This document shows, in pieces, positions 31,613-62,122 of a DNA stretch of 64,000 nucleotides. Made by a program: the position numbers and the translations under genes. Source of the stretch: an uncultured Chthonomonas sp. (lineage in GTDB: Bacteria; Armatimonadota; Chthonomonadetes; Chthonomonadales; CAJBBX01); contig CAISJD010000072.1 in NCBI GenBank assembly GCA_903885605.1, positions 39 through 64,038 of the forward strand. Reading direction: 5' to 3'. The first letter of the stretch is position 1, and every line of letters begins with the position of its first letter. The notes below the pieces were generated by a model that worked only from the letters and a program-made list of their open reading frames with translations, had not been told where the DNA came from and did no database searches.

Positions 31613-31999
31613 ATGCCGCTCGTTCTGAGCCACATCGAGAAGGCCGTGCAGTCGCTGAGGCGTTCGCTCGACCAACCGCTCGATGAGTTCTCGCGCGATG
31701 CAGTGATCCAGCGGTTCGCGTACACCTATGAACTCGCCTGGAAGCTGCTTCGCCGGGTGTTGCTGCACGAGTTCGGCCGGACCCATATCGACGGCGCGCC
31801 CCGCAGGGAGCTGTTCCGGGCCGCAGCACAACATGGGCTGATCCCGGATCCTGCTCCGTGGTTCGACTTCCATGATGCTCGGAACCTCGCCTCGCACACC
31901 TACAACGAGGTCATTTCGGACGAGGTGCACCGCGTAGCCGCCGGCTTCCTGCCGGCCGCGGAGGCGCTACTGACCGCCTTGGAGCCATTCGGTGCCTAG
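31613..31999 (+). CDS. HEPN / nucleotidyltransferase substrate-binding protein (HI0074 family)
   Basis: RDAVIQRFAYTYELAWK and RNLASHTY (R-X4-H) motifs. Confidence 0.9.
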   Translation: MPLVLSHIEKAVQSLRRSLDQPLDEFSRDAVIQRFAYTYELAWKLLRRVLLHEFGRTHIDGAPRRELFRAAAQHGLIPDPAPWFDFHDARNLASHTYNEVISDEVHRVAAGFLPAAEALLTALEPFGA

Positions 32000-32291
32000 C
32001 CTCGCCCTTGCCGCCGGCGACCTGGCGCTGGTCCGTCAGATCCTCGCCCGGCACGTGGCGGGAACGCCGGTGGTCGCCTTCGGGAGCCGCGTCACGGGTG
32101 AGGCCCGGACGTGGTCCGACCTCGACCTCATGCTCCTCACGCAGTCGCCGCCGCCGGCGCCGGCTCTGGCCGACCTGCGCGAGGAGTTCATGGTGTCGGA
32201 TCTGCCCATCAGCGTTGACGTCATCGATGCGTCACGGGCCGATCCGGCGTTCGTCGAGGCCGCGCTCCGTGGAGCTCTACCGATCGCGTAG
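31992..32291 (+). CDS. Minimal nucleotidyltransferase (MNT) antitoxin
   Basis: AFGSRVTG..SDLDL and LPISVDVID motifs; overlaps the HEPN stop. Confidence 0.9.
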   Translation: MPSLALAAGDLALVRQILARHVAGTPVVAFGSRVTGEARTWSDLDLMLLTQSPPPAPALADLREEFMVSDLPISVDVIDASRADPAFVEAALRGALPIA

Positions 32292-35892: not shown

Positions 35893-36064
35893 GGTTCCCC
35901 TCCATCGCCGGCGAGGCTATGGGCCACACCCACCGGCAAGAAGCAGGTTCGCCCCTCGGCGGCCGGTCTCCTGCCTGGCCAAGAGCATGAGGCGATCACT
36001 GCGGGTCAGCAGACGCAGAGGGTAGAGTAGTGCCATGGCGCCATGTGCGAGCAGGAGTGAACCC

Positions 36065-36289
36065 ATGTCAGGACTTCAGGCCCCACAATCGACGCGGTTC
36101 GTGACCGTAGACGGCCGTCGGCTCGCCGTGATGGATGCCGGCGACTGGGAGGCGGTAGTGGAGTGGCTCGAGGCGCTGGAGGACGCCGGCATCGCCGCCG
36201 CGGCTCGCAGCATCCTGGCGGCGGCGCACGGCGACCGGGCCCGAGCCGGTTGGGCCAAGTGGGATAGCGTCCGCGCCGACCTCGCGTGA
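36065..36289 (+). CDS. Antitoxin copy 1 (orphan)
   Basis: MSGLQAPQSTRFVTVDGRRLAVMDAGDWEAVVEWLEALED, near-identical to 37389-37613. Confidence 0.75.
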   Translation: MSGLQAPQSTRFVTVDGRRLAVMDAGDWEAVVEWLEALEDAGIAAAARSILAAAHGDRARAGWAKWDSVRADLA

Positions 36290-36316
36290 GCGACTACACG
36301 GTCTGGGTGACGCCGC
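36286..36316 (+). pseudogene. RelE toxin remnant (10 codons)
   Basis: VSDYTVWVTP versus intact VSSYAVWVTPQ..., then similarity ends. Confidence 0.8.
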
Positions 36317-36323
36317 CCTTGAC

Positions 36324-36368
36324 GTCGCCCTGAGTGAAGCGAAGGGCCCCGACTCCTTCGCCGCGCCC
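36324..36368. repeat. Degenerate REP-like palindromic element
   Basis: GTCGCCCTGAGTGAAGCGAAGG...CCTTCGCCGCGC resembles the recalled GTCATCCTGAGCGAAGCGAAGG...CCTTCGCTGCGCTCAGGATGAC repeat class. Confidence 0.5.
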
Positions 36369-36387
36369 TCGTACCCCTGCCCCGCCC

Positions 36388-37239
36388 CTACCGCACCCCG
36401 ACCATCAGCCCCTTGCAGTAGCCCACGCTCTCGGCGAGGCCCGGTAGCGGGTCGGCGCCGTCCTTCTCGTACTCGAAGTCGGCCATGCCGCGGAAGTCGA
36501 TCTTAACCAGCGCGGCCAGCACGGCCTTCAGGTCCAGCACGCCGCGGCCGGCCTCCAGCGTGCCGCCCTTGGGCTCGGCGCGGTCCACGTCCTTCAGGTG
36601 CACGTCGTAGAGCCGATCGCGGTGCTTGAGGATGGCCTTTGCCGGATCGACCCCGGCGCGGAGCGTGTGGCCCACGTCGATGCAGAAGCCGATCCGCTTG
36701 TCGTGGTCCTTGATGGTCTCCCAGACCACGTCGGGAGTGGCGAAGCGCTTGTCGCCGGGGCCGTGGTTGTGGATGGCGAGCCGGATGTCGAACTCCGCCA
36801 CGTAGCGGTCCAGCAGGCCCACGATGGCCGGGTCGAAGCTGCAGACCATGACCGGCGCGCCCAGGTCGCGGGTGTACTCGAAGGCGTTGCGGATGCCCGG
36901 TTCGTCGTTGGGCAGGTAGACGACCCCGCAGCTCAGCGGCGCGACGCCTGCCTCCCGAAGCTTGGCGGCCACGGCCTTGCGCTGCTCGGGCGCGCTCTTC
37001 AGCGGCAGGTGCATCTCCTTCAGCGAGACGCAGTCCAGCCCCACGCGCCTGGTCCCGGCGATGAGCACGTCGAGCCCGAAGCTCCGGAAGGTGTAGCTGG
37101 CCACGCCGATCCGGAGGCCGTGCCACGGGCCCGCGGGCGGGGCGGGTTCGGCCCGGGCCTCGCCGGCAAGGGCGGGCATCCCCGCCACCGCCAGACCCGC
37201 GCCCAGCAACTCACGTCGGTTCACCAGCGCACCAGCCAT
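36388..37239 (-). CDS. Sugar phosphate isomerase/epimerase (xylose isomerase-like TIM barrel), Tat-exported
   Basis: NRRELLGAG signal; LAIHNHG, CIDVGH, VHLKD, FEYE. Confidence 0.9.
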   Translation of the reverse strand: MAGALVNRRELLGAGLAVAGMPALAGEARAEPAPPAGPWHGLRIGVASYTFRSFGLDVLIAGTRRVGLDCVSLKEMHLPLKSAPEQRKAVAAKLREAGVAPLSCGVVYLPNDEPGIRNAFEYTRDLGAPVMVCSFDPAIVGLLDRYVAEFDIRLAIHNHGPGDKRFATPDVVWETIKDHDKRIGFCIDVGHTLRAGVDPAKAILKHRDRLYDVHLKDVDRAEPKGGTLEAGRGVLDLKAVLAALVKIDFRGMADFEYEKDGADPLPGLAESVGYCKGLMVGVR

Positions 37240-37340
37240 GTCGGCCCCTCCTGTCGTGCGGTTCCCACGGACTCCCCTGCAGGTTACCCGACGCTGGGCT
37301 GGGCGGCGCGGCAAAACGATGGCCGCATTCTGACAAGCGT

Positions 37341-37640
37341 AGAGGGTAGAGTAGTGCCATGGTGCCATGCGCGAGCAGGAGTGAACCCATGTCAGGACTT
37401 CAGGCCCTACAATCGACGCAGTTTGTTACCGTTGACGGTCGCCGCCTGGCCGTGATGGATGCCGGGGACTGGGAGGCGGTAGTGGAGTGGCTCGAATCGC
37501 TGGAGGATGCCTCCATCGCCGCCGCGGCGCGGAGCGCCCTGGCCGCGACACACGGCGACCGTGCACGAGCAGGCTGGGCCAGGTGGGATGACGTTCGCGC
37601 AGACCTGCTGTGAGCAGCTACGCCGTCTGGGTCACGCCGC
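37341..37640. repeat. Second copy of the 300-bp duplicate (intact TA locus)
   Basis: See 36017-36316. Confidence 0.95.
37389..37613 (+). CDS. Antitoxin of RelE/ParE-type TA pair
   Basis: AGGAG RBS; acidic ELED-like core, ends WDDVRADLL; GTGA overlap with the toxin. Confidence 0.8.
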   Translation: MSGLQALQSTQFVTVDGRRLAVMDAGDWEAVVEWLESLEDASIAAAARSALAATHGDRARAGWARWDDVRADLL

Positions 37641-37912
37641 AGGCGCTCGCTGAGATACGTGACCTCCCGGGCCATATGCGCCAGCGAGTCCGCCGTGCGG
37701 TCGATGGGCTAGCAGTAGAGCCCCGTCCATCCCTCAGTAGTGTGTTGGGGGCTCACGAGACTCAAAGCCAGGTTCGGCGTCTCCGCCTTGATCGATGGCG
37801 GATCGTCTACACCGTGGACGACGTTGAACGAGCCATTGATGTACTCGCAGTGCGAAAGCGCCCACCCTACGACTACAAAGACCTGGAGCGCCTTCTGACG
37901 TGTGGTATGTAG
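37610..37912 (+). CDS. relE: RelE/ParE-family toxin
   Basis: YAVWVTPQALAEIRDL, RRLRLDRWRIVY, VLAVRKRPPYDY. Confidence 0.85.
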   Translation: MSSYAVWVTPQALAEIRDLPGHMRQRVRRAVDGLAVEPRPSLSSVLGAHETQSQVRRLRLDRWRIVYTVDDVERAIDVLAVRKRPPYDYKDLERLLTCGM

Positions 37913-38681: not shown

Positions 38682-38906
38682 TCAGACGCGTACTGAGATC
38701 GTCCGGGAGACCGCGCCGGCCAACCTGGCCAGATCGCCCTGAACGGCCAGGTAGTCGCATATCGCGTCGCGAATGTTGTCCAGGGCTTCGTCCTCGGTGG
38801 CTCCTTGCGAGGCGCAGCCGGGCAACCCCGGCACCCAGACCGCCCAGCCCTCCTCCGACGGAAGCACGGCAACCGAGTACCCCTGCTGCATTGCGTCCAT
38901 GGTCAT
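38682..38906 (-). CDS. hicB: HicB-family antitoxin
   Basis: YSVAVLPSEEGWAVWVPGLPGCASQGATEDEALDNIRDAI; GGGAGG RBS. Confidence 0.88.
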   Translation of the reverse strand: MTMDAMQQGYSVAVLPSEEGWAVWVPGLPGCASQGATEDEALDNIRDAICDYLAVQGDLARLAGAVSRTISVRV

Positions 38907-39057
38907 CGCGTCCCTCCCAAGCCCCGATGCGGCCTCCCTGGCCGGTCTCGACCTTCCACTGCAGGTTACCCGAACCCGGAGCGCCGCGCCTGCGCAGGCA
39001 GGAACCCGGCGCGGCGGCGGCGAAGTGTGGGGCACCATCGCCGGTAGGAGGCCCGCC

Positions 39058-39849
39058 ATGCGCAACGTGAACATCGGAGGCTGCGCCGTCAGCCGCTTCA
39101 TCCTGGGCAGCAACCCCTTCAGCGGCTTTTCGCACCAGTCGCCCGAGACGGACCTGGCCATGAAGCGCCACTTCACCACGGCGCGCATCAAGCAGACCTT
39201 GCGCGAAGCCGAGGGGCTGGGCATCAACACGCTCATCGCCCGGACCGACCACCACGTCATGCGCGTGCTGCTGGAGTACGGCGACGAGGGCGGCAGCCTC
39301 CAGTGGTTCGCCCAGACCTGCCCCGAGGTCGGCAGCCACCAGGTCTGCGTGGAGCGCGCCGGCTGGGGAGGCGCCCGCGCGTGCCACATCCACGGCGGCG
39401 TCATGGACTACCTGGTGGCGAACAAGCGGCTGGACGAGATCCCCGGCGTCATCGACCTGATCCGCTCCAAGGGCATGCTGGCGGGCATCGCGGGGCACAA
39501 CCCGGCCGTCTTCGAGTGGGCCGAGGAGCACCTCGACACCGACTACTACCTCTGCTGCTACTACAACTCGGCCAACCGCGATGAGCGCGCCGAGCACGTC
39601 AGCGGCCAGAAGGAGTGGTTCCTCGAGGAGGACCGCCTGCGCATGACGGAGCTGATCGCCGGCATCAAGCGCCCGGTCATCCACTACAAGATCATGGCCG
39701 CCGGCCGCAACGACCCAGCCGAAGCCTTCGCCACCGCCGCCCGCCACATGCACGCCAACGACGCCGTCTGCGTGGGCATCTATGACCCGGAGGGGCAGGG
39801 CCTCCTGGCAGAGGACGTGCGGCTCCTCAACCAGGCCCTGGGGGAGTAG
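39058..39849 (+). CDS. Aldo/keto-reductase-like TIM-barrel protein
   Basis: VSRFILGSNPFSGFSH, AGIAGHNP, PVIHYKIMAAGR; AGGAGG RBS. Confidence 0.75.
   Translation: MRNVNIGGCAVSRFILGSNPFSGFSHQSPETDLAMKRHFTTARIKQTLREAEGLGINTLIARTDHHVMRVLLEYGDEGGSLQWFAQTCPEVGSHQVCVERAGWGGARACHIHGGVMDYLVANKRLDEIPGVIDLIRSKGMLAGIAGHNPAVFEWAEEHLDTDYYLCCYYNSANRDERAEHVSGQKEWFLEEDRLRMTELIAGIKRPVIHYKIMAAGRNDPAEAFATAARHMHANDAVCVGIYDPEGQGLLAEDVRLLNQALGE
39730..39849. repeat. Direct repeat C1: functional 3' end of the 39058 gene
   Basis: About 12 mismatches in 117 nt to 43937-44059, half of them synonymous. Confidence 0.95.
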
Positions 39850-39855
39850 AGGGGC

Positions 39856-40479
39856 TCAGGTCTGCGGCTCCAGACCCAGCGCACCAACCTGCTGCAGGCC
39901 GTCGCCCAGGATGCACCGGCATAGGGCAAATGCGGTATCGGGGTCCATCTCCTCGAAGGGATGGATCATGACGGACATCGGCATCGGCGGCTGCCAGCCG
40001 ACAGACAGCGTGAACGCAATCCCCGAGAGGAGACATGCCCCGTTCCTCTTGTAGAACGAGATTCGCCGCTCGGCATCGGCTCGGCACTCGCTACCGTGAC
40101 AGGAAGCGGGATCCTCGACCTCGATGACCAGCGCCCTCGCACCGCAGCACCGGCACTGGCGCGCGATATGCCTGTACATGGCTGAGCCAACACCCCGGCT
40201 CCGTTCGGTGGGCTTAACGGCGAGATACCAAAGCGCGGCGGCATCGGTCTGCGGTACCATCTCCCAGTTACTGAGTCCAAGGAAAAGCCCGTCCTCGTCA
40301 GTAGCAGCCATGTGGATGGCATGCGACTGAGCGCCACATGCCCGCTGCCCGATCTCCGTGAGATGTGTGCTGACTAGTGCCTGTTCACCTAAGGGGAATG
40401 ACTTCTGGTACAAGTCAAGCCATGGCCCTAACAGAGGGTCCTGCAGCGCTGTGATCTCCATCATCCGCAGATCGCTCAC
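39856..40479 (-). CDS. GNAT N-acetyltransferase
   Basis: LWYLAVKPTERSRGVGS acetyl-CoA motif A, RRISFYKRNG; GTGA overlap with the ATPase stop. Confidence 0.88.
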   Translation of the reverse strand: MSDLRMMEITALQDPLLGPWLDLYQKSFPLGEQALVSTHLTEIGQRACGAQSHAIHMAATDEDGLFLGLSNWEMVPQTDAAALWYLAVKPTERSRGVGSAMYRHIARQCRCCGARALVIEVEDPASCHGSECRADAERRISFYKRNGACLLSGIAFTLSVGWQPPMPMSVMIHPFEEMDPDTAFALCRCILGDGLQQVGALGLEPQT

Positions 40480-43004
40480 TGAAGGTCGCCTTTGCGCAAC
40501 CTTTCGGCCAGCGACGTTAGTTCCATACTGTGTGCATACTGACCAATCACGGTCATCAGTTGATTACTGTTTTCGAGTGCACTTCTACGTATCATTACGT
40601 CGCCTCTCTGCTTCGCGTAGCGCTCATCGCCCAGTGCCGGCACCGGAGGAGCGATGTACGCACGCAGGCGAACAGCCGCATGGGCCTCGAGAAGGTTATC
40701 CTCCCATACCGCGGTCTCGTGACCGGTATGAAACCAGTACGGTTCCCACTCACTATGCAGGTGTTCACACGCGCTGCGGGCGTAGGCCGACCCGATCGCA
40801 GACAGATAACTAATCCCGATCATGATACGAGCGTGAATATTTGCATACATATCTACGGCATATGAATCAATTGGATATAACCCTTGGATGCTATATACCC
40901 AAACAGAAGCCTTGACCCACTGAGTCGCTATGGTCTTTGCGATAACGGAAACCGACGGGTCGGGCTCGTCACCTACGCATGGGAGCTCAGTCAGAGTGGT
41001 GCGTCTGGAGCGCAGTTCATCTAGCAGCACGTCAGCTTGGGCCATCGAGGCAAGAGCGCGAACGTCGTGGCCTTCCTCTCCGGCGTCGTCAAACGCCTGC
41101 GTCGCCAGATTCCGTGCCGTGTCAAACTGGGATCGCTCGCGGGCGTGCCTCGATCGCTGAAGCAGAATGAACGAATTCGTCCATGCCCACTCCTGCACTG
41201 ACAAGAGGTCCTGAGTGGCCTCTTGGTACAGTTGGTCAGACAGGTCGAAGTCAGGACAACTCTCATCCTGAAACGAGCAACATTGCGCCTGCCCGTATTT
41301 TATGCATGCTGAGACAAACCATCGCTCTTCTGTGTCTGTCGTCCGTTCGCATAATAACAGCTGTTCTGTGGTTCGAATGGCCTCAAGTGCCTTGCGGCAA
41401 GCGTCCGGCTTCGGCCGCTCCGTCCAGAGGGCACGTGGGCTGTGAGTCCTGAACGTGATCAGCGACTCGGTGAGCCGGCGCATGAGGGATTGCGAGCCGG
41501 CAGTGGTGCCATCGGTATCGATCACAGCCAACCGCATCTCGTCTATCAATGTATCTATATACTTCCACTCACACACCTCATCCCAGTACCACCAGGCACG
41601 CAGGAACACATAACATAATCGGACCAGTGGATTCTTAACCGCAGATAGTTTGGGTAGCCTGCTGAGGTAGTGAAGGTAAGTGACTGTCACTCGCTGGTAC
41701 GCTGGATGTTCCACGAGGTATTCGCCTGCAACAGGCGATACAACGAGGCGCGTGTCCTTACCATAGCCCAGGAGCATCGCCTCAAGAGCGTTCAGCCGGA
41801 AGTCGGACCAGATGGTGTCTTTGGACCCCTGCCACTCAATACAATCCGTGAGGGCCTTCCGAGCGTACAGCGCTGTTGCATCAGATGCCTTGAACGTACC
41901 CCGCTCCATGTGGCGCTCGACGTGGTTGCCCGGCACAAGCGCCACGAGTAGCCGCTGGACCGCCTGTAGCGGGTCTTCCAGTTCTGAATCCGGGGCATCG
42001 TCGCCTTCCGGTCTGGACCCAGCCAGGCGGCGAGCCTCGTCGCTCACTTCGTTCGGAAGCGTGAGGGTCGCCGCCGTTAGCAGTACCTTCACGACGCGGA
42101 GTACCATGGCCGGCGTGCATTCCGTCTCCGCCAAAGCCAAGCACATGAGCACAACCCTCCAAGCGGCGGGCATACGGTCCAGCCAGTCCATCGCTAGTAG
42201 GTGCAGCACCTGCTCGGCCGGTGCGCCTTCGGGAATGACCAGCGATGTTGGGCGCACGCCGCCAGGCCGCATGAACATTAGCGCGCGGGGGCTCCATTGG
42301 CATGCCGTCCCGATGGTCTGAAGGTGCCCTTTGAATCCCTGATCGGCCTCCGACGCGGCAAGGGCCAGCCAGTCCTCCGGCGTCAGGCCGGTCTTGATAT
42401 CCAGGTAAGAGACATTGACTCGCTGTAAATCGTCTGGCCACGGCTGTGTTGTCTCAATAATTAAGCGCGGAATGCCTATAGTGGTGCGACAGAACTCGAA
42501 CAGATCATAGTAAGGGTACTTGGGGACTAACTGGGCATAGTGAAGTACGAGTTCAAAATTTGAAATAATGATACTCGTGTCTGCTCGACCGGAACAGATG
42601 TCTGCCAGTGCACTGCGGGTCTGGCCGTCAGCAATCTGCCCAAGCGATGATGCCCTGCAGTTGAGCTGCCGGTCGATCTCGGCAATCAGATCGCCGACTG
42701 GCTCAACGCCGCCGGGCCCCTGGGCGCAACTCACGCGTGCAAATGCGCGGCTGGCCCTCATATGCGCGTAGTCAACCAGGTGTGTCTTGCCGTAACCCGC
42801 AGGTCCGTACACGATGATCACACGGACTCTGGCGTCTTTTAGCCAGTCTCCAAGCATAGCTACCTCGCTGCTGCGCCCTTTGTGCCTACAGTTGGCCCAT
42901 CTGGGGTCATCGCTGCGAGGAGCTTGAAGAGGCGGCGGCGGTGACGGCAGCGCCAGTTTAACTGGGTGGTCGCCATTCGGTGCTGACACGACAACGCTAT
43001 GCAT
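40476..43004 (-). CDS. STAND/NB-ARC-like P-loop ATPase with helical TPR-like C-terminus
   Basis: KGRSSEVAMLGDWL, Walker A VYGPAGYGKT, degenerate Walker B IIISNFE, LIIETT, helical C-terminal half; visibly lower GC. Confidence 0.75.
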   Translation of the reverse strand: MHSVVVSAPNGDHPVKLALPSPPPPLQAPRSDDPRWANCRHKGRSSEVAMLGDWLKDARVRVIIVYGPAGYGKTHLVDYAHMRASRAFARVSCAQGPGGVEPVGDLIAEIDRQLNCRASSLGQIADGQTRSALADICSGRADTSIIISNFELVLHYAQLVPKYPYYDLFEFCRTTIGIPRLIIETTQPWPDDLQRVNVSYLDIKTGLTPEDWLALAASEADQGFKGHLQTIGTACQWSPRALMFMRPGGVRPTSLVIPEGAPAEQVLHLLAMDWLDRMPAAWRVVLMCLALAETECTPAMVLRVVKVLLTAATLTLPNEVSDEARRLAGSRPEGDDAPDSELEDPLQAVQRLLVALVPGNHVERHMERGTFKASDATALYARKALTDCIEWQGSKDTIWSDFRLNALEAMLLGYGKDTRLVVSPVAGEYLVEHPAYQRVTVTYLHYLSRLPKLSAVKNPLVRLCYVFLRAWWYWDEVCEWKYIDTLIDEMRLAVIDTDGTTAGSQSLMRRLTESLITFRTHSPRALWTERPKPDACRKALEAIRTTEQLLLCERTTDTEERWFVSACIKYGQAQCCSFQDESCPDFDLSDQLYQEATQDLLSVQEWAWTNSFILLQRSRHARERSQFDTARNLATQAFDDAGEEGHDVRALASMAQADVLLDELRSRRTTLTELPCVGDEPDPSVSVIAKTIATQWVKASVWVYSIQGLYPIDSYAVDMYANIHARIMIGISYLSAIGSAYARSACEHLHSEWEPYWFHTGHETAVWEDNLLEAHAAVRLRAYIAPPVPALGDERYAKQRGDVMIRRSALENSNQLMTVIGQYAHSMELTSLAERLRKGDLQ

Positions 43005-43083
43005 CTATCTCCTCCGGGATCGGCGCGTGCGCGGGTTCTGCACCTGCCGATGGTGCCGCTGTGGCCGTAGTACCCGAGGTCGT

Positions 43084-43764
43084 CTAGGCAACGTCCTTAG
43101 TCCCTACTTTATCATTAAGCCATTGAGATAGTTCATCACTCGTGTCAATATTCATCATGTTCTGGACCCATTTCATGCACCATGCAATTTGCTTCTTGCC
43201 GCTCTTAAGCATGTCATCTGATAATTCGTTACTATGCAGGGCTTCATTATAATAGACAGCAAAAGAGTGCTTCATGAGTCCTAGAGTTCTCAACAATTCA
43301 TCAGTATCAATTCTCTCGACTCTATGCCGACGACTAGGCGCTATGTGAATCGATACAAGTTTGTGGTGCAAGATTGCATTCGCAACAATGTGTGCTGACA
43401 TATAAGACTGCAACGGATGAAATACATATAGATGCCAGTCGTTATATATCGCGTCCGCCCACTTCTCTCTCTCTGAGTCTGCAATGTGAACCATATTCCA
43501 CCACACAGCGATCCCCGCGATGCCGATGCCCCATGTCATCAGGCCGCCGGTCAGTCCAGGCCAGAACGAACCCCAATCATGCGCTCCGGAGCGGGGAAGG
43601 TGGGACAACACGCTACTCAGTGAATCCCTCGGCACTGCGGCACAACAGATGATGGCTGCACCCAACGCAACAATCCAGAGCGCTCCGAAGTCCAAACGCG
43701 ATAGCGCTGACCGGCGCTCAGGGACCCCATTGTCACCGGAACCGCCTGTACTCTCTGATGTCAT
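43084..43764 (-). CDS. Hypothetical protein with two N-terminal TM segments
   Basis: Hydrophobic FGALWIVALGAAIICCAAV and LMTWGIGIAGIAVWW; AT-rich soluble C-terminus; GGAGG RBS. Confidence 0.7.
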   Translation of the reverse strand: MTSESTGGSGDNGVPERRSALSRLDFGALWIVALGAAIICCAAVPRDSLSSVLSHLPRSGAHDWGSFWPGLTGGLMTWGIGIAGIAVWWNMVHIADSEREKWADAIYNDWHLYVFHPLQSYMSAHIVANAILHHKLVSIHIAPSRRHRVERIDTDELLRTLGLMKHSFAVYYNEALHSNELSDDMLKSGKKQIAWCMKWVQNMMNIDTSDELSQWLNDKVGTKDVA

Positions 43765-43936
43765 TCCGACCCTCCGGTGCGGCGAGTGTGCCTCAACGCC
43801 ACCATCATATCACTCTATCGTGAGAGCATCGTGAGAGAACCGGCCGTTTTGGGGCGTTCTGGGGCTGTCGGCGGGGCTATTTCGAAAAATCGCCTGTAGA
43901 CGGGCATCGATGTGGGGTGGCCGACTTGCTGGTGGG

Positions 43937-44059
43937 GCCACCGCCGCCCCCCATATGCACGCCGACGACGCCGTCTGCGTGGGCATCTATGACCCGGAGG
44001 GGCAGGGCCTCCTGGCCCAGGACGTGCGTCTGCTGGAGGAGGCCCTGGGCGAGGGGTAG
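43937..44059. repeat. Direct repeat C2: orphan 3' end of the 39058 gene
   Basis: Encodes ATAAPHMHADDAVCVGIYDPEGQGLLAQDVRLLEEALGEG* versus ATAARHMHANDAVCVGIYDPEGQGLLAEDVRLLNQALGE*. Confidence 0.95.
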
Positions 44060-53830: not shown

Positions 53831-56800
53831 CTACACGAGCGCTTCGCTGCAGATGATGCGCGGCGCCTCGTCGGCCTCGCCGGTGCGCCGGTGCGCCGAG
53901 TCGGCCATCTCCGCCAGTCCGTGCTCGTGGTAGATGTCGGTCAGCAGCTCCACCAGCGGCCTGCCCGTCAGCCCGTTGCGGCGAGCCGTGTTCAGCTCGC
54001 GCCGAACCGCCGCCGGCACGGGCCTCCGGAACGCCTCCTCCAGCAACGAGACCTGCCGCCGGAGCGGGTCCGCCTCGGGCAGGGCTCCGCAGAAGCCGCG
54101 GAGCTCGCGCAGGGCGTAGGCCTGGGCCACGGTGAGCGCCGGGCTGTGCTTCTGCACGGCGCGCCGGTGCTCGGCCTCCGCCGCGAAGGTCTGCAACGCC
54201 GCCCCCACCGTGGCGTTGTAGCCCGCGGGCAGGAGCGTGGCGGGCTCCTCCGGGGCGCAGCGGATGGCGCCCAGCGCCGTCGGCATGTCCTTTGAGATGA
54301 CCTGCCCGGCGCCGTCGAGCAGCATCAGCTGCTGGTACTCGCCCGCCTGGCAGAAGAGGTACGCGCCGGCCCGGGCGGGCGCCTCGCGGCCGGTCCGGAT
54401 GCCGTCGGGCAGGTTGCGGATGCGCTCGAACTCCTCGGGATCGTCGCGCAGCAGGCGGCGCAGCAGCTCCTCGGCCTCGTTCAGGTCCACCAGGTCGCCG
54501 CCGCCCTCCTCGATGGCGCCGATCCGCCCGGCATCGCCGCCGTAGATGGCGAACATGGCCTCCTCGTTCAGCGTCTCGGTCCTGTCGAGGATGGCGGAAT
54601 CCTCGCCGATCGTATCGTGGATCTCTTTGATGCGCTGTTTGAGGACGTTCTGCAGACCCAGCTGCGCCTCGAGCTGCGTCTCGGGCAGGAAGTTGAAGCC
54701 CCAGATCCGCTCGTTCTCGGAGCCGATCCGGTCGATGCGGCCGAAGCGCTGGATCAGCCGCACCGGGTTCCAGTGGAGGTCGTAGTTCACCACCACGTCG
54801 CAATCCTGCAGGTTGAGGCCCTCGGACATGACGTCGGTGGCGATCAGCAGGCGCACTTCGTCCTGCACGGCCACGCGGATCTGCGGGTTGGCGCGGGGTG
54901 CAAAGCGGGCGGCCACCTGCGCCTTGTTCTTGTCGTTGCCGTAGACGCTCTCCACATCCTGCGCCTTGCCGCCGTCGCTCAGCGCGTCGTAGAGGTAGCG
55001 GGCGGTGTCGGCGTACTGGGTGAAGATGAGCGCCTTGCCGGTCTTCTGCGGGATGCCGCTCCGCAGCCGGGACTTCAGCTCCTGCAGCTTGGCGTCGGTC
55101 TCGGGTCCGATGGGCGCCACCAGCTCCAGCATCCGCCGGATCAGCGCCCGGTCGGCCTCCAGGTCGCGCCGCAGGCGGGGCGCGTCGAAGTCGGCCAGGG
55201 CGTAGCGGCCCGAGGCGGCGCGCAGGGCGTCCATCAGGTCCAGGTCGTCGGCCTGGTCGGCGTCGTAGAGCAGCCCCTGCGCCGCGTCGCCCGCGGGCAC
55301 GAAGCCCTGCTCCATGGCCGCCAGGAAGGCGCCGTGGATGCCCTCCAGCCGCTGGAGCGTGGCGCGGAAGGCCTGCACGCTCGACTCGAACCGCTTGAAG
55401 AGCATCACGCGGATGAGCCCGCGCAGGTTCATTCCGGCGCGCTGCAGGTCGCGGTAGGGGCTGGACTTCCTGCTCTCGGGCAGCACGTAGTGCCAGAGGC
55501 CGTACCGGGCGTAGGTGAGCGCCTCGGCCGGGCCCTGCGCCCCGACGGGCGGCGCCAGCCAGTTCCGTATCTGCTGGTAGAGCCCGGCGTAGGTCGCCTC
55601 GATGCTGTAGGCCACGGTCTCCAGCTCGCGCCGGGGGAAGAACTGCCGCCGCCCGCCCACGCGCACGTAGGCCCGCTGCCTGCCGTCGAGGTAGGGCTGC
55701 AGCCGGGCCTCGGGCAGTTCGCGCAGGGGCGTGTTTGAGCCCTCGGCGAAGCCGTAGTTGCGGAGGATGTCGCGCCGGGTCCGGCGGATCAGCACGTGGC
55801 GCAGGAGGTCCTGCAGCCGCCGCTGCCCCTTCTCCACCGCCTTGAAGTACTCCTTCAGGTTCGGCGGGTCCACGGGCAGCTCGGTGATGTCGTCCGGGTG
55901 GAAGAGCTTGAGCTGGTTGTAGACATCCATGGCCGACTTGTCGCGCGGGGTGGCCGTGAGCAGGCAGACCCGGCGCCCGGCGCGGGCCAGGTAGGTCTGG
56001 AGCGCCTCGTACCGCTGCGAGGCGTGGCTGCGGAAGTTGTGGCTCTCGTCCACCAGCACGAAGTCGCGGTCGCGGTACTGCACCTTGTCGAGGACGCCCG
56101 AGCCCTGCGAGAGGAAGCCCATGGAGAGCACCTGCGCGTTGAGCTGGTAGGTCTCGTTGTAGGCCTCCCACATGTCGACCAGCGACCGGGGGCAGAGGAT
56201 GAGCGCCCGGCGCCGCTCGGTCCGCTCGAAGTGCTTGACGATGGCCGCGCCCACGAAGCTCTTGCCCAGGCCCACCACGTCGGAGACGAAGGCGCCGCCC
56301 CGGTCCCGGATGGTCTGGATGGTCTGCCGCACGGCGTCGACCTGGAAGTCGGCCAGCGCCCGGGTGATCTCGTCGTCCCAGAGCACGCCGTCGCCGCCCC
56401 GGCCTTCGAGCCGGTCGCCCACCAGGGCGAAGAGCGACTTCATGTAGATATCGTACGGCCGCACCTGCACGGCCGCCCAGCAGGCCCGGAGCTGCTCCAG
56501 CAGGAGCTGGTCGAAGGGGAAGGCCTCCTCCCAGAGCCGGTCGAACCAGGCGGCGAGCTGGGCGTGGTTCTCGGCTCCGTGCACCACCACGTTGAGCTCG
56601 GAGTTGTGGGTGAGGCCCGAGAGGCTCAGGTTGGAGGAGCCGACGATGGCCACGCCGGGCTCGTAGCGGCCGGGGCCGTAGTCGAAGATGTAGGCCTTGG
56701 CGTGGAGCCGCCCCCTGGTGTAGACGCGCACCTCCAGCCGCCCCTGCTCGATGAGCCGCATGAGCGTCTGCACCAGGCTCTCGGCGCCGTCGGTCTGCTC

Positions 56801-57133
56801 CATGAGCTCGGCGGATCGGCCGATGGCGGCGGCGGTCTCCCGGGCGCGTTCCTCCTGCTCCACGCCGCGCAGGTAGCGCTCGCGGTCGGCGGCGGCGCGC
56901 ACCGGGGCCAGCCGCCCGGCGGCCTCGGCGAGCTGCTCCAGCGTCTCGCGGCTCCCCGTGTTGCCGATGAGGAGCCGCACGCGCCCCACGCCCTCCAGCT
57001 TCTCGTGGATCGCCTCGAAGCCGGAGAGGAAGAAGTAGCCCACGGCGAACCGCGCCGCGTCCGACGTGGCCAGGATGTCGTTGATATGGTCGGCCAGCCT
57101 CTGGTCGCGGTTATCGATGATGTCGTGGGGCAC
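53831..57133 (-). CDS. PLD(HKD)-nuclease fused SNF2-family helicase
   Basis: AVGYFFLSG, LHAKAYIFD..GSSNLS (HKD), SDVVGLGKS, VDESHNFR, LTATP, ATDVMSEGLNLQ, QRFGRIDRIG; GTG 57133 with GGGAGG RBS. Confidence 0.92.
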   Translation of the reverse strand: MPHDIIDNRDQRLADHINDILATSDAARFAVGYFFLSGFEAIHEKLEGVGRVRLLIGNTGSRETLEQLAEAAGRLAPVRAAADRERYLRGVEQEERARETAAAIGRSAELMEQTDGAESLVQTLMRLIEQGRLEVRVYTRGRLHAKAYIFDYGPGRYEPGVAIVGSSNLSLSGLTHNSELNVVVHGAENHAQLAAWFDRLWEEAFPFDQLLLEQLRACWAAVQVRPYDIYMKSLFALVGDRLEGRGGDGVLWDDEITRALADFQVDAVRQTIQTIRDRGGAFVSDVVGLGKSFVGAAIVKHFERTERRRALILCPRSLVDMWEAYNETYQLNAQVLSMGFLSQGSGVLDKVQYRDRDFVLVDESHNFRSHASQRYEALQTYLARAGRRVCLLTATPRDKSAMDVYNQLKLFHPDDITELPVDPPNLKEYFKAVEKGQRRLQDLLRHVLIRRTRRDILRNYGFAEGSNTPLRELPEARLQPYLDGRQRAYVRVGGRRQFFPRRELETVAYSIEATYAGLYQQIRNWLAPPVGAQGPAEALTYARYGLWHYVLPESRKSSPYRDLQRAGMNLRGLIRVMLFKRFESSVQAFRATLQRLEGIHGAFLAAMEQGFVPAGDAAQGLLYDADQADDLDLMDALRAASGRYALADFDAPRLRRDLEADRALIRRMLELVAPIGPETDAKLQELKSRLRSGIPQKTGKALIFTQYADTARYLYDALSDGGKAQDVESVYGNDKNKAQVAARFAPRANPQIRVAVQDEVRLLIATDVMSEGLNLQDCDVVVNYDLHWNPVRLIQRFGRIDRIGSENERIWGFNFLPETQLEAQLGLQNVLKQRIKEIHDTIGEDSAILDRTETLNEEAMFAIYGGDAGRIGAIEEGGGDLVDLNEAEELLRRLLRDDPEEFERIRNLPDGIRTGREAPARAGAYLFCQAGEYQQLMLLDGAGQVISKDMPTALGAIRCAPEEPATLLPAGYNATVGAALQTFAAEAEHRRAVQKHSPALTVAQAYALRELRGFCGALPEADPLRRQVSLLEEAFRRPVPAAVRRELNTARRNGLTGRPLVELLTDIYHEHGLAEMADSAHRRTGEADEAPRIICSEALV

Positions 57134-57147
57134 GGGGGCGGACCTCC

Positions 57148-60100
57148 CTAGAGACCGTAGAGCGCTTCCACGCGGGCGTTGATCTCCCGCTCCCAGGCCT
57201 CGCACTCCACGCCGCGGGCATCGACGCAGCGTCGCGCCAGGTCGGCGATGGCCGCCCGGTCGGCCTCGGAAGCCTCGGGGATGGGCAGGCGCTGTAAGTT
57301 GACCCACTGCAGCATGACGCGGCCGCGCTTGCCTGCGTCGCCAAGCACGGCACAGCAGGAGCTAGTGTATGCCCAGGCATCGGCGGAGTTGAGCACGCCG
57401 AGGAGGTACAGGTCGTCCGTGGGAATAACGAAGCCCTTATTGTTCGTATATATCCCGCCTGCGGCGTCATACGCAAATCGCTGCTCTAATGCTATTTCTG
57501 GGTAGAGGATTTTAGGCTGATCGAAGAGACCATAGTAGGAGCACGCCCGTAGCTCCCACCAATGGCTGCCCTGATCCTGGCGAGCCCGCAGTCGATCCTC
57601 CCACTGGCAGAGGTGGGCCATCACGGCGGAATGGCGCACCATGTCCACTCCAATGGCGGTCGTGATCAACCATCGGTCGTGGTTCTCTGCAGCCCAGCGC
57701 CGGATGTCCCGCCCGAGTAGCAAGGGCTTGATGATCTCGTCGTTGCGGGGGTCGGACTCGACCAGCTCGCGCCGTTTCGCGCCGTCGATGACGAATGCCG
57801 CGTTCAGGCCCGTCAGCACGCCTCGGTAGACTTGGCCACCGATGTACTCGCCCAGCGACGGGCCGGACCCGTCCATCTTGCGTAGCCGATCGGCGGTCTC
57901 GGATCCTGCCAACGTCCATCGTTCGCCGGCCAGCGCGCCCGCCGGCAGAGGGCGACCGAGCATCGTGTTCAGCGCCGCCACATCGGGATACGGCGGCTTA
58001 AGCGTAGTGACCTGTGTGTATATCGCGGAGCCGTCAGGACTGCCCTTCGACGCGATGAAGATCATCGGGAAGGTCGCAGCCGCCGCGAACACTGGTAGCT
58101 CACCAAAATCTGTGACGCGCCCAACCCGGCACGTCTCGGCGATGTACCTTCGTAGCTTGGCGCCGTAGGCTGCTCGGAACCACTTGTTTGAACTGATGTA
58201 GGCCAGAACGCCGCCGGTCAGCAGCACCTGCACGCCACGCATGTAGAAGTACGTGTAGAGGTCGGCGGTGCCGCAGTGCAACTCCCCATACACTGCCTTG
58301 AGCGCGGGTTTCTGGTCCGAGATGAGCTCCTGCCGCACATACGGCGGGTTGGCGACAACGATGTCGAAACCGCCGTTGCCGTCGGCGAAGACCTCGGCGA
58401 ACTCGACGAACCAGTTGAGCCCCGCGGAGGCCGCGCCGCCGCCAAGAGCCGCCTCGATCTGTTCGCGGGCCGCGCGGACCGCCGCGCCGGCCGTGGCCTT
58501 GGGGCCCGGCTCCGAGGCCTTGAGGTACTCCGCCTTGGCTCGTGCGTAGTCCTCCACCACGCCGTGGAAGAGGGCGAGGTGGCCCGAGGCTATGGCCTGC
58601 GGGTCGGGGCCGGTGAGGCTGTTGCCCTGCCGAATCTTGAAGTCCAGGTTGGGCAGCGGCGGCGGCGTCTCGTCGGCGCCTGCGGCGTACTCAACGGCCA
58701 GCGTGAGCCAGAGGCGCAGGCAGGTGATGTTCACGGCGGTGGGGTCCAGGTCCACGCCGTAGAGGTTGCGCCCGATGATCTGCAACTTGCGGTCGTAGAC
58801 CTCCTGCGCGCCCACCTTGTGCGCCACGAAGAGCGCGTCGCGGAGGTCCAGCAGCTCGTGCAGCATCCCCAGCAGGTAGGCGCCGCTTCCGCAGGCGGGG
58901 TCGCAGACGCGCAGGTCGGACAGGGCGGCGAGGACCCTCTCGATGTGGCCGATTGCGCTGGGGTCGTGGTCGTAGACGAAGGCCCGCGCCGCTTCCTCGG
59001 TCTGGCCCGTCCGCGCCACCAGGTGGCCCACCAGCGCCTCGCGGCACATGTAGGAGACGATGGGCTTGGGCGTGTAGTAGCTGCCGGAGCCGTGGCGGTC
59101 GGTGATGAGCCGCTCGAAGATGGTGCCCAGCATCTCCGGGTCGATGGCCACTTCCTGGTCCAGCGTGGTGCTTTCGGTGATGGTGAAGTTGTAGCCGGCG
59201 TAGAGGTCCAGGATGTCCCAGACGGCCTCGTCGGGCACGCCGGGGGCGCGGTTCAGTTCCGCCTCGGTCTCGGCGAAGAGGCCGCCGTTGAGGAACGGTA
59301 CGTGGCCGATGAGGTCCGTGAGGATGCCCCCGCCGTTGATGCCCACCAGGTCGGCGCCGTGGGGCGTGTTGAGGCCCGAGAAGAAGAGGAGCCGCAGCCG
59401 GGAGGCGTAGAAGCCCTCGGGGACGGGGCGCTTGAGGTAGTCGCGGCGGAGGGCCTGCAGGTAGTCGCGGTCCTCGCCGAAGCGGAGCCAGCCCTTCTTC
59501 TCGATGAAGGCCACGAACATGAGCCGGTTGAAGAGGTGCTGGGTAAAGAGGCGACGCGCCGCGTCCTCCTCATCGCCTTCGCCGAAACCGGTGACGAGGT
59601 CCGAGACCTTGCGGAAGACGGCCTCATACTCCTTGTAGAACCCGTCCGTGACGGCCTGCACGTCGAAGGCCCTGTCATGGGCCGCCTGGATGGCCGCGGC
59701 GTCGGCGGCCTCGCCGATCTTCGCGATGGCGATCGCCTGCAGGCGGTCCACGGCGGTGCGCCCGGTCTGGCAGGCCACGGCCATGCGGCGAAGGAGCGGC
59801 TTGGCCGCATCGCCGGCGACGTAGCGGGCGTTCACGAGGCGCCACTGGTCCATGGAGCGGTTGGAGAAGACGAAGAGGGCGCGGAGCGTGGGGTCGTCGT
59901 CGAGCATGCGGGTCACAGCGTCGCGCTCGGCCTTGACGCTCAGCCTCTCGTCGGTCAAGGGGAACCAGATGACCCTGAAGCCGTTGTGCTCGGCCACGCT
60001 CCGGGGCAGCGGGGCACCCTCAGGCAGGCCCGTGCAGGGCATGGCTTCGTCATCGTGGCCGTAGCCGAGCACGCCACAGAACAGGCGCCGCAGGGCCTCC

Positions 60101-60615
60101 GGGCCGTCGAGCCCCTCAAGCGCCTGCTGGAGGTTGCGCTTCTCGGTCCGCTCGGGCGCAACCTGCGGCAGCGGCGCGGCTCCCGCGGGCCGAACGGCGC
60201 ACTGATGCGTGGCGGGGTCGTAGGGGTCGGGGTTGAGGCAGATCTCGGTCACGCCATCGACGCGGATGAGGACGCACTCCTGCGTCAGGCGGCTCGCGAC
60301 GTCACATGCGAGCCGCCGAACATCGTCAATGTATTCGCTCAGCCCTGCGCTGTTGGTGCTACCCATCACGGCCGAGCACGCCTCGCTGGCCATCGTCCCA
60401 TCGTTGGCCATGTAGTCGCCCACCGTGGGCCGCATGCCGGCAAGGCCGTCGGCGTCAAGCGTGGTCCCGCCGAACCATCTGGCGATCAGCCGGCGCACTT
60501 CCTGCAGCACAACCTGGCGCACAGGTTCCGGCAGGGGCAGAGTGCATCGGCACTTAGTGGGAACAAGCAACTCAACGGAGTGTTGGTACCGGATGACCGA
60601 CGGCTGTGTCGACAT
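57148..60615 (-). CDS. Eco57I/type IIG-like N6-adenine DNA methyltransferase with TaqI-C-like TRD and extra N-terminal domain
   Basis: PFLNGGLF, DPEMLGTIFE, GSYYTP, DPACGSGAY, DIVVANPPYVRQE, ISSNKW, PKILYPEI, YLLGVLNS; CAGGAG RBS before ATG 60615. Confidence 0.92.
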   Translation of the reverse strand: MSTQPSVIRYQHSVELLVPTKCRCTLPLPEPVRQVVLQEVRRLIARWFGGTTLDADGLAGMRPTVGDYMANDGTMASEACSAVMGSTNSAGLSEYIDDVRRLACDVASRLTQECVLIRVDGVTEICLNPDPYDPATHQCAVRPAGAAPLPQVAPERTEKRNLQQALEGLDGPEALRRLFCGVLGYGHDDEAMPCTGLPEGAPLPRSVAEHNGFRVIWFPLTDERLSVKAERDAVTRMLDDDPTLRALFVFSNRSMDQWRLVNARYVAGDAAKPLLRRMAVACQTGRTAVDRLQAIAIAKIGEAADAAAIQAAHDRAFDVQAVTDGFYKEYEAVFRKVSDLVTGFGEGDEEDAARRLFTQHLFNRLMFVAFIEKKGWLRFGEDRDYLQALRRDYLKRPVPEGFYASRLRLLFFSGLNTPHGADLVGINGGGILTDLIGHVPFLNGGLFAETEAELNRAPGVPDEAVWDILDLYAGYNFTITESTTLDQEVAIDPEMLGTIFERLITDRHGSGSYYTPKPIVSYMCREALVGHLVARTGQTEEAARAFVYDHDPSAIGHIERVLAALSDLRVCDPACGSGAYLLGMLHELLDLRDALFVAHKVGAQEVYDRKLQIIGRNLYGVDLDPTAVNITCLRLWLTLAVEYAAGADETPPPLPNLDFKIRQGNSLTGPDPQAIASGHLALFHGVVEDYARAKAEYLKASEPGPKATAGAAVRAAREQIEAALGGGAASAGLNWFVEFAEVFADGNGGFDIVVANPPYVRQELISDQKPALKAVYGELHCGTADLYTYFYMRGVQVLLTGGVLAYISSNKWFRAAYGAKLRRYIAETCRVGRVTDFGELPVFAAAATFPMIFIASKGSPDGSAIYTQVTTLKPPYPDVAALNTMLGRPLPAGALAGERWTLAGSETADRLRKMDGSGPSLGEYIGGQVYRGVLTGLNAAFVIDGAKRRELVESDPRNDEIIKPLLLGRDIRRWAAENHDRWLITTAIGVDMVRHSAVMAHLCQWEDRLRARQDQGSHWWELRACSYYGLFDQPKILYPEIALEQRFAYDAAGGIYTNNKGFVIPTDDLYLLGVLNSADAWAYTSSCCAVLGDAGKRGRVMLQWVNLQRLPIPEASEADRAAIADLARRCVDARGVECEAWEREINARVEALYGL

Positions 60616-60679
60616 AAACCTCTCCTGAACCGGTGCGCTGAGGACTACCACCTAACTATAGCGCACCAAGCCGGACACC

Positions 60680-62122
60680 TCATCGCAGCGCCGGGAGCTT
60701 GACCACGGCCTCGACGTAGGGCGCCAGGTCGCGCACGTAGCCGCCCTGGATGACCCCTACGTAGAACTGGACGCCGCGCTGCCGGGTGGCCTGGCACTGG
60801 TCGGGCGTGGGCCGGCCGGTGTAGCCGTCGGTGAGGATGACGGCCCTGCGCGGCGTCTTGGCCCGGGGCAGGCCCAGCAGGTGATCGTAGACGCACTGGA
60901 TATCGGTGCCGCCCGTGGTCCGCACCCGGCCGGCGGCGAAGTCCTGCCTGGTGACCTCGGCGACCATGGTGCTGAAGAGCCGCACGTCAATGCTGCCGTC
61001 GCGCACCAGCGGACCCAGGGCGCTGAGGAGCCAGGGCAAGTCCGCAGACATCGACCCGCTCACATCCAGGTAGACGAACGCCGAAGCCGACGGCCTCAGG
61101 CGCGGGGCCGGGCGCACCACAGCGTCCTGGTAGAGCAGTTGATCGGTGTCCCACAGCTCGCCCTTGGCGGCTATGGTTCGGTCGCGGGCGGTGGGCTCGA
61201 ACGTCATGCGCTCAAACGTCCGCGGCTGGACCTCCCACGAGAGGGGTCCGTTGCGCTTACCGGAGGTGATGCCGGCGCGGCGCAGCAGGTCGCGCAGGGC
61301 CTCCAGGAACGAGGCTCGGGGCGGCTTCGGCTTGCCGAGGAGGAGCTCCTGCAGCTCTCGGAGGCCCAGCCCGGCCGCGCGGCTCAGCCCCTCCTGCGGC
61401 CACCTGGCCACGGCCTGTCCCAGCGCCGAGGAGACGAGTGGATCGCGCACGGCCGCCTCATCGGCCGGTCCGGACCCGTTGGGCCCGCTATGGTCGCCGA
61501 GGAGCGGCGGCTCGGATTCGCCGGCGCCCTCCGCGCCGTCGAACAGGGCGCGCACGTCGTCATAGGTCACCATGGAGGGAGAGCCTGCGGCGGAGGGCTC
61601 CTTGCCATAGAGCAGCCGCATCACGGCCGGCTCCCCCGGCCGTGCGGCGAAGGGAAGCACGCGGCGCGACAGATGCCAGCCCACCGGCGGCCGAAGGATG
61701 CGGTCGGGGAAGAGATCGGCCGAGTAGAGGCTGGTGAAGAGGTCGGTGTAGGCAGGCTCGGGAAACTGGCGGCAGAGGAGGGAGTTGATGACCGCGTCCA
61801 TGACGATGTTGTCCACGTCGGTGACGCGGGGCCACAGGCGCGTGTGGCCCAGCAGCACGTGGTAGAGCTCATGCATGATGAGCATGAAGAGCCGCTCGTC
61901 CGTGGCGCAGTGCTCCTCGATGAAGTCCGGGTTCACGAGCAATCGCGGCTGCGGGCCGGTCTCCACGGCGGCCGTCGCGCATCGGTCGTCGGCCACCACG
62001 TCGACGAGCGAGAGGAGCGTGAGCATCTCATAGCGGCCGGCCGGCAGGACGGACATGACGCGGGCGCGCATGCGCTGCGCTGCCTCGAGCCTCTCGGCTT
62101 CGGTAGTCACGGTGGCGCTCAT
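60680..62122 (-). CDS. DUF2201-like metallopeptidase-vWA protein
   Basis: TAAV..NPDF, HELYHVLLGH (HExxH), NIVMDAVIN; vWA MIDAS YLDVSGSM, TGGTD, ILTDG. Confidence 0.85.
   Translation of the reverse strand: MSATVTTEAERLEAAQRMRARVMSVLPAGRYEMLTLLSLVDVVADDRCATAAVETGPQPRLLVNPDFIEEHCATDERLFMLIMHELYHVLLGHTRLWPRVTDVDNIVMDAVINSLLCRQFPEPAYTDLFTSLYSADLFPDRILRPPVGWHLSRRVLPFAARPGEPAVMRLLYGKEPSAAGSPSMVTYDDVRALFDGAEGAGESEPPLLGDHSGPNGSGPADEAAVRDPLVSSALGQAVARWPQEGLSRAAGLGLRELQELLLGKPKPPRASFLEALRDLLRRAGITSGKRNGPLSWEVQPRTFERMTFEPTARDRTIAAKGELWDTDQLLYQDAVVRPAPRLRPSASAFVYLDVSGSMSADLPWLLSALGPLVRDGSIDVRLFSTMVAEVTRQDFAAGRVRTTGGTDIQCVYDHLLGLPRAKTPRRAVILTDGYTGRPTPDQCQATRQRGVQFYVGVIQGGYVRDLAPYVEAVVKLPALR

Follow-up and report, generated by a model that had tools for sequence, protein, structure and literature searches.

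The window analysed here, a stretch of 64,000 nucleotides from contig CAISJD010000072.1 of an uncultured Chthonomonas sp. (Armatimonadota), contains an island of ~4.1 kb (39850-43936) with three co-oriented minus-strand open reading frames, which encode a membrane protein of 226 aa (43084-43764, with GGAGGG ahead of its ATG), a STAND-like P-loop NTPase of 842 aa (40476-43004, with a GGAGGA Shine-Dalgarno sequence 5 nt ahead of the ATG at 43004) and a GNAT acetyltransferase of 207 aa (39856-40479). The stop of the NTPase gene and the start of the GNAT gene overlap in the tetranucleotide GTGA (40476-40479, minus strand), pointing to translational coupling. The GC content of the island is 0.574 against 0.70 in both flanks and 0.689 genome-wide (0.50 in the membrane-protein gene, 0.58 in the NTPase gene and 0.62 in the GNAT gene), and at third codon positions it reaches 0.53-0.73 in the island genes against ~0.9 in the neighbouring ones. 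Both ends are marked by a 117-nt direct repeat, the left copy (39730-39846) and the right copy (43937-44053), both given on the plus strand, being 90% identical. The preliminary description of this locus, made from the letters of the window, had reported the co-oriented genes, the AT-richness, the bounding repeat and the GTGA overlap, and all of these hold. The main result of the present work is that the NTPase belongs to a family of STAND proteins of Armatimonadota, every member of which was found next to a GNAT of one subfamily, while the N-terminal domains of the family vary.

The NTPase was hardly accessible by direct searches. A word-index search of 5.8 billion proteins returned the protein itself alone, with HMMER, run in full against 1.84 billion representatives, there were three marginal matches (E 3e-5 to 8e-4; two NB-ARC/AAA_16 proteins and one TPR protein), and phmmer against the sequences of the PDB gave no match at E <= 10. 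From Pfam it was matched by AAA_16 alone, at 27.2 bits and thus below the cutoff of 32.6, and not by NACHT; the ESM Atlas placed it among AAA_16 and TPR_12 clusters at 0.97; none of the three island proteins was matched in PHROGs, and in NCBIfam they had sub-threshold matches alone. However weak these signals, a profile of the NTPase domain built from 12 relatives without the window protein recognises it with 31.2 bits over residues 43-230 (42315-42878, minus strand), and relatives having its C-terminal domain in common pass the Pfam thresholds of NB-ARC (L046, L050 and L101, as the related loci are numbered here), NACHT (L046) and NPHP3_N (L103), so that, together with a STAND-TPR protein as the best Foldseek match of its model, the suspected STAND class of the protein is supported. 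The deposited form of the protein (P0001) begins at M50 and is probably too short, since both the AAA_16 match and the family profile begin at residue 43.

The Walker A motif GPAGYGKT was confirmed at residues 67-74 (42783-42806, minus strand), preceded by just 66 residues, which agrees with the earlier remark that an N-terminal effector domain is almost lacking; the P-loop is conserved, as judged by eye, in 12 of the 14 rows of the family alignment A4. The serine reported in place of the Walker B aspartate is also real: the stretch IIISNFE (residues 145-151; 42552-42572, minus strand) departs from the pattern of four hydrophobic residues and Asp followed by Asp or Asn, keeping the subsequent N-x-E. 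In the 14-row alignment this column holds D in eight members, E in two, S in three (the window protein, L041 and L105) and G in one, and the family consensus is LLVxDNxE, which we take to resemble the Walker B motif of bacterial NB-ARC proteins.

The way to the family led through the neighbouring gene, as the STANDs lying beside GNAT homologs have the C-terminal region of the window NTPase in common. The family-defining C-terminal TPR-like domain comprises residues 427-825 (40530-41726, minus strand; alignments A2 and A3), where the window protein reaches 109.8 bits with a profile from which it had been left out, and blastp of the relative L050_920 against the window NTPase gave 22% identity over 416 residues (E 3.5e-12 when 19 sequences were compared). 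The motifs of the domain in the window protein, RAWWYWDE, YPIDSYAVDMY, EWEPYW and APPVPALGD, correspond to the family motifs F-A-x-WWW-x-E, YP, D-x-Y-S/T, W-x-P-Y-W and PP-x-P-x-L-x-D, i.e., to the strings flagged in the preliminary description. In all, 15 distinct STAND members with this domain were found, all in Armatimonadota. With the profile of the C-terminal domain alone (eight sequences) run as a reverse test against 401 genomes of the phylum, 13 genomes were matched, six of them the sources of the profile and seven new, belonging to five taxonomic families in all. There is one strong match per genome, and the distribution is patchy (9 of the 68 genomes of the order). The domain evolves fast, with a median end branch of 1.59 in comparison with 0.63 for the GNAT; its tree is poorly resolved (2 of 11 branches supported), L100 and L102 being sisters in both the STAND and the GNAT trees, and L104 and L105 in the STAND tree only.

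The AlphaFold2 model of the NTPase was unusable without an alignment (mean score of the predicted local distance difference test, pLDDT, 37.8) and reached a mean pLDDT of 59.1 with the 14-sequence alignment, the C-terminal domain lying mostly at 60-92 and residues 205-399, where the helical or winged-helix module of a STAND would be sought behind the NTPase core, below 50. Its top Foldseek match was 6mfv, a solved STAND-TPR protein (E 4.5e-5, with low TM-scores of 0.24/0.30), followed by SAMD9, Avs3 (8dgc) and Apaf-1, all with low TM-scores too. By VIA-align, residues 43-204 resemble the NTPase domains of the ORC/Cdc6 type and of the AVAST5 filament (Z 10-11.7), and residues ~394-812 the TPR-like receptors Rap, PlcR, NprR and domain III of MalT (Z 11.7-13.9, a range that VIA-align itself rates as common for helical repeats). 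The all-helical model of about residues 400-830 with its TPR-like matches thus predicts a superhelical sensor domain. The label TPR given earlier is supported in terms of the fold, but no Pfam TPR model matches the window protein. The prediction of a complex between the C-terminal domain (A3) and the GNAT (A1) returned a score of 0.00, "no answer", speaking neither for nor against binding.

The second gene of the pair encodes a protein of the GNAT superfamily by its Pfam matches (Acetyltransf_1, 34.7 bits with a cutoff of 20.7; Acetyltransf_7, 27.6 bits with a cutoff of 27). Its stretch RSRGVGS, in which R93, G96 and G98 are invariant or nearly so in alignment A1, is presumably the acetyl-CoA motif, as judged by the GNAT consensus R/Q-x-x-G-x-G/A. 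Twenty-eight homologs with 35-47% identity were collected, which begin at the position aligned with the start of the window GNAT and bear the subfamily marks LDLYQxSFPxxEQ and SVGWQPP; the window GNAT keeps 22 of the 22 invariant columns of A1. A scan of 185,579 species genomes, restricted by its search patterns, found 10 loci of the GNAT, all 10 in Armatimonadota, and among 40 relatives of the genome of the window a strong match was present in 15, with none in two genomes of the same genus. By sequence, the solved proteins nearest to the GNAT are 3ey5, RimI and diamine acetyltransferase, whose substrates are metabolic or not known, and no relative of the GNAT was found with its profile in viral contigs. 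No small antitoxin gene directly precedes the GNAT: its upstream neighbour in the window is the gene of the 842-aa NTPase and, in the related loci, either the gene of a STAND with 750-1100 aa or some unrelated one.

Each of the 15 STAND members adjoins a GNAT of this subfamily, which lies directly downstream in 11 of the 15, and seven of the genomes were found by the STAND domain alone; the conserved linkage to a GNAT that had been proposed for a neighbourhood analysis is, therefore, established within the family. Thus, in the loci L041, L046, L049 and L050, reached by GNAT homology, a large co-oriented STAND NTPase lies directly upstream of the GNAT, often overlapping it (the gene starts being taken from the longest open reading frames, so that overlaps in the related loci are approximate), with the architectures TIR-NB-ARC, NACHT/NB-ARC, AAA_16/nSTAND3 and AAA_16/NB-ARC/TPR_MalT, respectively. 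In the reverse test, a subfamily GNAT was adjacent in six of the six new loci with usable flanks: directly downstream of the STAND in L099, L100 and L102, and in L103 as two tandem copies; upstream and co-oriented with one gene between in L104; and convergent in L105. The STAND of the seventh locus is cut off by the end of its contig, and the end of the domain, followed by the GNAT, is found on a further contig of that genome. In L042 the GNAT follows a different STAND, which is unmatched by the C-terminal profile. The assumption that the STAND-linked GNATs form a clade of their own was rejected, as linked and unlinked sequences are interspersed in the tree, with 12 changes against a mean of 12.4 after shuffling, three short contigs with flanks not known being counted here as unlinked. 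Among the GNAT loci without a STAND, a xylose-isomerase-like TIM-barrel gene is a neighbour in L006, L007 and L045 (the window also has such a gene, at 36388-37368) and an FMN reductase gene in L001 and L004; the tandem GNATs of L103 (5021-6318) come from different branches of the GNAT tree; and in L044 (2484-3643) the subfamily GNAT and one from a different family overlap.

The N-termini of the STAND members are variable. A TIR domain was found in L041 and L103, that of L041 matching the Thoeris ThsB model with 7.4e-50, an adenylate/guanylate cyclase domain in L101, two strong transmembrane helices in L046, and a weak match to DUF4145 in L050, whereas the window protein, L003, L099, L104 and L105 have a short N-terminus with no recognised domain. 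A Lon-protease-like N-terminal domain in L049 and L040 is a lead only, from weak PDB matches (best E 0.068 and 0.93, respectively), and none of the members showed a DNA-binding or other regulatory output domain. No third gene is common to the whole family, and the flanking genes differ at every related locus, so the two genes travel as a unit. Homologous ankyrin-repeat genes with 33% identity directly precede the STAND in L099 (6451-7518) and L100 (3816-5066), two loci of distant genomes, and both have a weak PADLOC match to PDC-M72A.

The surroundings of the window copy resemble those of an integrative element in that the direct repeats at both its ends duplicate the end of the target gene. 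The left, inner copy of the repeat forms the 3' end in use by the flanking gene 38773-39849 (...LLNQALGE*) and agrees with the same-genus genome G001 at 105 of 123 positions, while the right, outer copy is a leftover 3' end of this gene that agrees with G001 at 112 of 123 and ends in ...LLEEALGEG* as in G001. With the outer copy being the closer one to G001, the data fit an insertion that came with a variant 3' end of the flanking gene. In G001 the same flanking genes are found at ~90% identity, and the site of the island is taken by a 2.6-kb gene of a PAS histidine-kinase/receiver hybrid of normal GC (L033, G001:C56, 3483-6305); in the second same-genus genome the contigs break at the site, and the module has no match in either genome. 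Judged from these sequences, the site is variable and the island was inserted there; it is foreign-looking by composition and probably horizontally acquired. No recombinase family (integrase or transposase) was found among its three proteins with Pfam, NCBIfam and PHROGs, no paralogs of them were found elsewhere in the genome, and promoter and terminator scans gave nothing beyond the shuffled expectation. The island and both junctions are covered by contigs of three lake-water DNA runs of one study, and none of the contigs covering the site has a joint that skips the island.

The membrane protein is of another kind. Its description as a protein with two transmembrane segments is right for a strongly hydrophobic one at residues 26-44 (Kyte-Doolittle 2.44) and uncertain for that at residues 70-88, which is weaker and glycine-rich (1.33); the C-terminal half of ~130 aa is soluble. 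Only the protein itself was found among 5.8 billion proteins, no relative exists in any related locus, and there was no family match in Pfam, PADLOC, NCBIfam or PHROGs, so that the protein is apparently specific to this island, and the view of the three genes as a conserved trio had to be given up in favour of a pair. The label "Retron Ec48 effector membrane protein" of the ESM Atlas (0.80) was rejected as lying under the bar of 0.9, with no named family at 0.9 or above. The transmembrane pair fused to the N-terminus of the STAND in L046 parallels the separate membrane protein of the window, without sequence similarity between the two.

Several other features of the window may be mentioned. 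The gene of a ParE-type toxin (37610-37912; Pfam ParE_toxin, 1.6e-7) is preceded by that of an 84-aa partner (37359-37613), a second copy of which lies 1.3 kb away (36035-36289) within a 300-nt repeat of 86% identity; G001 has no DNA match to the stretch holding this pair. About 70 nt at 36307-36380 match dozens of sites in the two same-genus genomes with 80-93% identity and look like a small dispersed repeat of the type of repetitive extragenic palindromes (REP) or miniature inverted-repeat transposable elements (MITE). The minus-strand gene 53831-57307, 10 kb from the island, encodes a defence-like protein of 1158 aa with PLD-like nuclease, SNF2/ResIII helicase and NgoFVII-like parts, and a similar PLD-helicase-DUF3427 gene adjoins the GNAT homolog in L063. 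A small Pol-beta-type nucleotidyltransferase of 99 aa (31992-32291, plus strand) is presumably of the kind found in MNT/HEPN pairs, and the open frame of 808 aa at 58276-60702 (plus strand), with codon-position GC of 0.91/0.45/0.70 and no Pfam match, may encode a low-complexity protein or not be a gene.

Taken together, the island would carry one copy of a conserved two-gene module of Armatimonadota, acquired horizontally, whose first gene is proposed to encode an NB-ARC-like STAND NTPase with the family-specific TPR-like C-terminal domain and the second, directly downstream and usually overlapping, the GNAT of the subfamily. The C-terminal domain may work together with the GNAT, either reading the GNAT itself or its acetylated product, or needing the GNAT in order to be set, and nucleotide-dependent switching of the STAND would then drive an output specific to the member, such as a TIR domain, a cyclase, an N-terminal transmembrane pair, or none. 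For the window copy, which is devoid of an output domain, the island-specific upstream membrane protein would be the candidate output. The reading that we favour, though its probability falls somewhat short of an even chance, is that of an NLR-like conflict module, most likely anti-phage, with the GNAT as the constant partner of the sensor, because the linkage is strict in one direction, the sensor domain is conserved and the outputs are exchangeable. The immune-type TIR domains point the same way, as do the patchy occurrence in single copy, the fast evolution of the STAND and the foreign nature of the island. The GNAT as the partner of the sensor (a guardee, co-sensor or conditioner) is ranked above the GNAT as an effector, since it is kept beside STANDs with TIR or cyclase domains and also lives alone.

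Several points weigh against this reading. The STAND is missing from about half of the GNAT loci, and since GNATs with and without the linkage are intermingled in the tree, the GNAT leads a life of its own, the pairing having been gained or lost many times; moreover, the related genomes are not independent samples. Defence-like neighbours were found in only two of 12 related loci (NurA-HerA-NYN in L040, and Mrr_N with another STAND in L003), the others having glycosidases, peptidases, transporters and flagellar genes nearby. Proteins of the adenylate-cyclase-STAND-TPR type also act in ordinary signalling, PADLOC lacks a model of the core, as would equally be the case for an undescribed system, and no RNA runs are listed among the sequencing runs that contain the island sequence. 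The window copy, with Ser at Walker B and no output domain, may itself be a weak or inactive member.

The opposite assignment of roles, in which the STAND senses an invader via its C-terminal domain and switches on the GNAT as a toxic acetyltransferase of, e.g., charged tRNA or another essential target, with TIR and cyclase domains as extra outputs, takes up the effector supplied in trans (the GNAT and/or the membrane protein) of the preliminary description, and we consider it unlikely. It would account for a window STAND that has no output domain of its own and for the translational coupling of the two genes, and GNAT toxins of toxin-antitoxin pairs exist. In one study, GNATs are named as effectors of other predicted conflict systems (bioRxiv 10.64898/2026.10.19.760177). 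However, a toxic GNAT is not the simplest explanation where it is retained beside STANDs already equipped with TIR or cyclase domains; besides, the subfamily stands alone in many loci, without an antidote-like partner and next to ordinary genes such as those of FMN reductase or sugar-isomerase-like proteins, its rate of evolution is lower than that of the STAND, and its nearest solved structures have, as said, metabolic substrates or ones not known. A narrower form of the favoured conflict module, in which the pair is a genetically fixed guard-guardee unit whose TPR-like domain monitors the GNAT, or the molecule that it acetylates, and fires the variable output (a TIR domain, a cyclase or the membrane protein) upon phage interference, can be given only a minor probability.

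A pair outside immunity is also conceivable, in which a MalT-like, ligand-gated STAND senses a small molecule or peptide through the TPR-like domain and regulates, or is fed by, metabolic or detoxifying acetylation by the GNAT. The resemblance of the C-terminal domain to peptide- and ligand-binding TPR receptors and to MalT domain III (Z 11.7-13.9), the cyclase domain of one member, the mostly metabolic neighbours and the wide occurrence of the GNAT in the phylum without a STAND all suit such a role, but these Z-scores fall into the range common for helical repeats, no member has a DNA-binding or other regulatory output domain, two members carry ThsB-like TIR domains, and the patchy distribution, the fast evolution and the foreign composition of the island around the window copy speak against it; this explanation is doubtful. 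That the window copy is merely an inactive remnant, with an inherited adjacency, a STAND that no longer works and a membrane protein that is unrelated cargo, is very improbable: the Ser in the Walker B column where 8 of 14 members have Asp, the missing N-terminal domain, the island without an integrase and with repeat copies diverged to 90%, and a membrane protein without relatives would agree with decay, and yet all three frames are intact, two of them with good ribosome-binding sites, all motifs of the C-terminal family and 22 of 22 invariant GNAT columns are kept, Ser stands at the same column in two other members, and several members do without an N-terminal domain.

The favoured conflict module is of interest because bacterial NLR-like STANDs are usually described as single-gene sensors binding a phage protein directly, whereas the sensor domain of this family always came with one particular acetyltransferase as its neighbour, and the output domains are exchanged freely. 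Should the module be immune, it would provide a compact prokaryotic test case for indirect sensing, either guard-type or modification-dependent, and a role for a GNAT subfamily whose substrate is not known; the guard-guardee form, if true, would mean a new infection-sensing route for bacterial NLR-like proteins and a new named defence system, so far restricted to Armatimonadota. In methodical terms, a protein without a detectable relative among billions gained a family of 15 members via the relatives of its neighbour.

As for the known systems, neither the STAND core nor the C-terminal domain nor the GNAT is represented by a model in PADLOC, which gave just PDC-S27 (E 0.055) for the window NTPase and, apart from TIR matches, nothing for 11 of 13 relatives, in keeping with the suggestion that the system is undescribed. 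Among the papers returned by full-text searches, as judged by titles, abstracts and passages, none describes the STAND-GNAT pair, although supplements might list related neighbourhoods. In fold, the C-terminal domain matches best the RRNPP receptors (Rap, PlcR, NprR and AimR; Z 11.0-13.9), but the resemblance is that of the helical-repeat fold only, in a common Z range; the sequences are not similar, and an HTH or phosphatase part is missing here. The STAND regulators of the MalT/AfsR type likewise have a P-loop followed by a helical TPR-like sensor, with a fold match to MalT domain III at Z 11.7, and differ by a DNA-binding domain, which no member of the present family has. The GNAT toxins of type II toxin-antitoxin pairs, such as TacT, AtaT and ItaT, share with the pair the overlap of the GNAT start with the stop of the upstream gene, but this gene is here a STAND of 750-1100 aa and not a small antitoxin, and the subfamily also stands alone. 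The nearest case in the literature returned, where a STAND NTPase is combined with a GNAT, is the BREX-related capture (BRC), a predicted seven-component defence system with TGT, HerA and PglZ, built around HerA/FtsK and PglZ, with the GNAT paired with TGT for DNA modification (PMC12839542); none of these partners (HerA/FtsK, PglZ, TGT) is present at the window locus. In ParA-type systems GNATs are described as optional effectors (bioRxiv 10.64898/2026.10.19.760177). The Avs (AVAST) proteins have the same general plan, with the STAND NTPase in the centre, a long helical sensor at the C-terminus and a variable effector at the N-terminus, a likeness that extends to the Foldseek match to Avs3 (8dgc) and the VIA-align match of the NTPase part to AVAST5/Avs5; however, no PADLOC Avs model matches, the window copy is without an effector domain, the C-terminal domain forms its own family, and the Avs act as single genes, whereas the STAND family here always has the adjoining GNAT. 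The bNACHT proteins are NLR-like sensors as well, and the family member in L046 passes the NACHT threshold, unlike the window protein, which has no NACHT match. Among them, bNACHT25 senses through the host DnaJ (PMC12169576) and thus provides a precedent for indirect, guard-type sensing, with the difference that the partner proposed here, with which the sensor may be in contact, is encoded next door.

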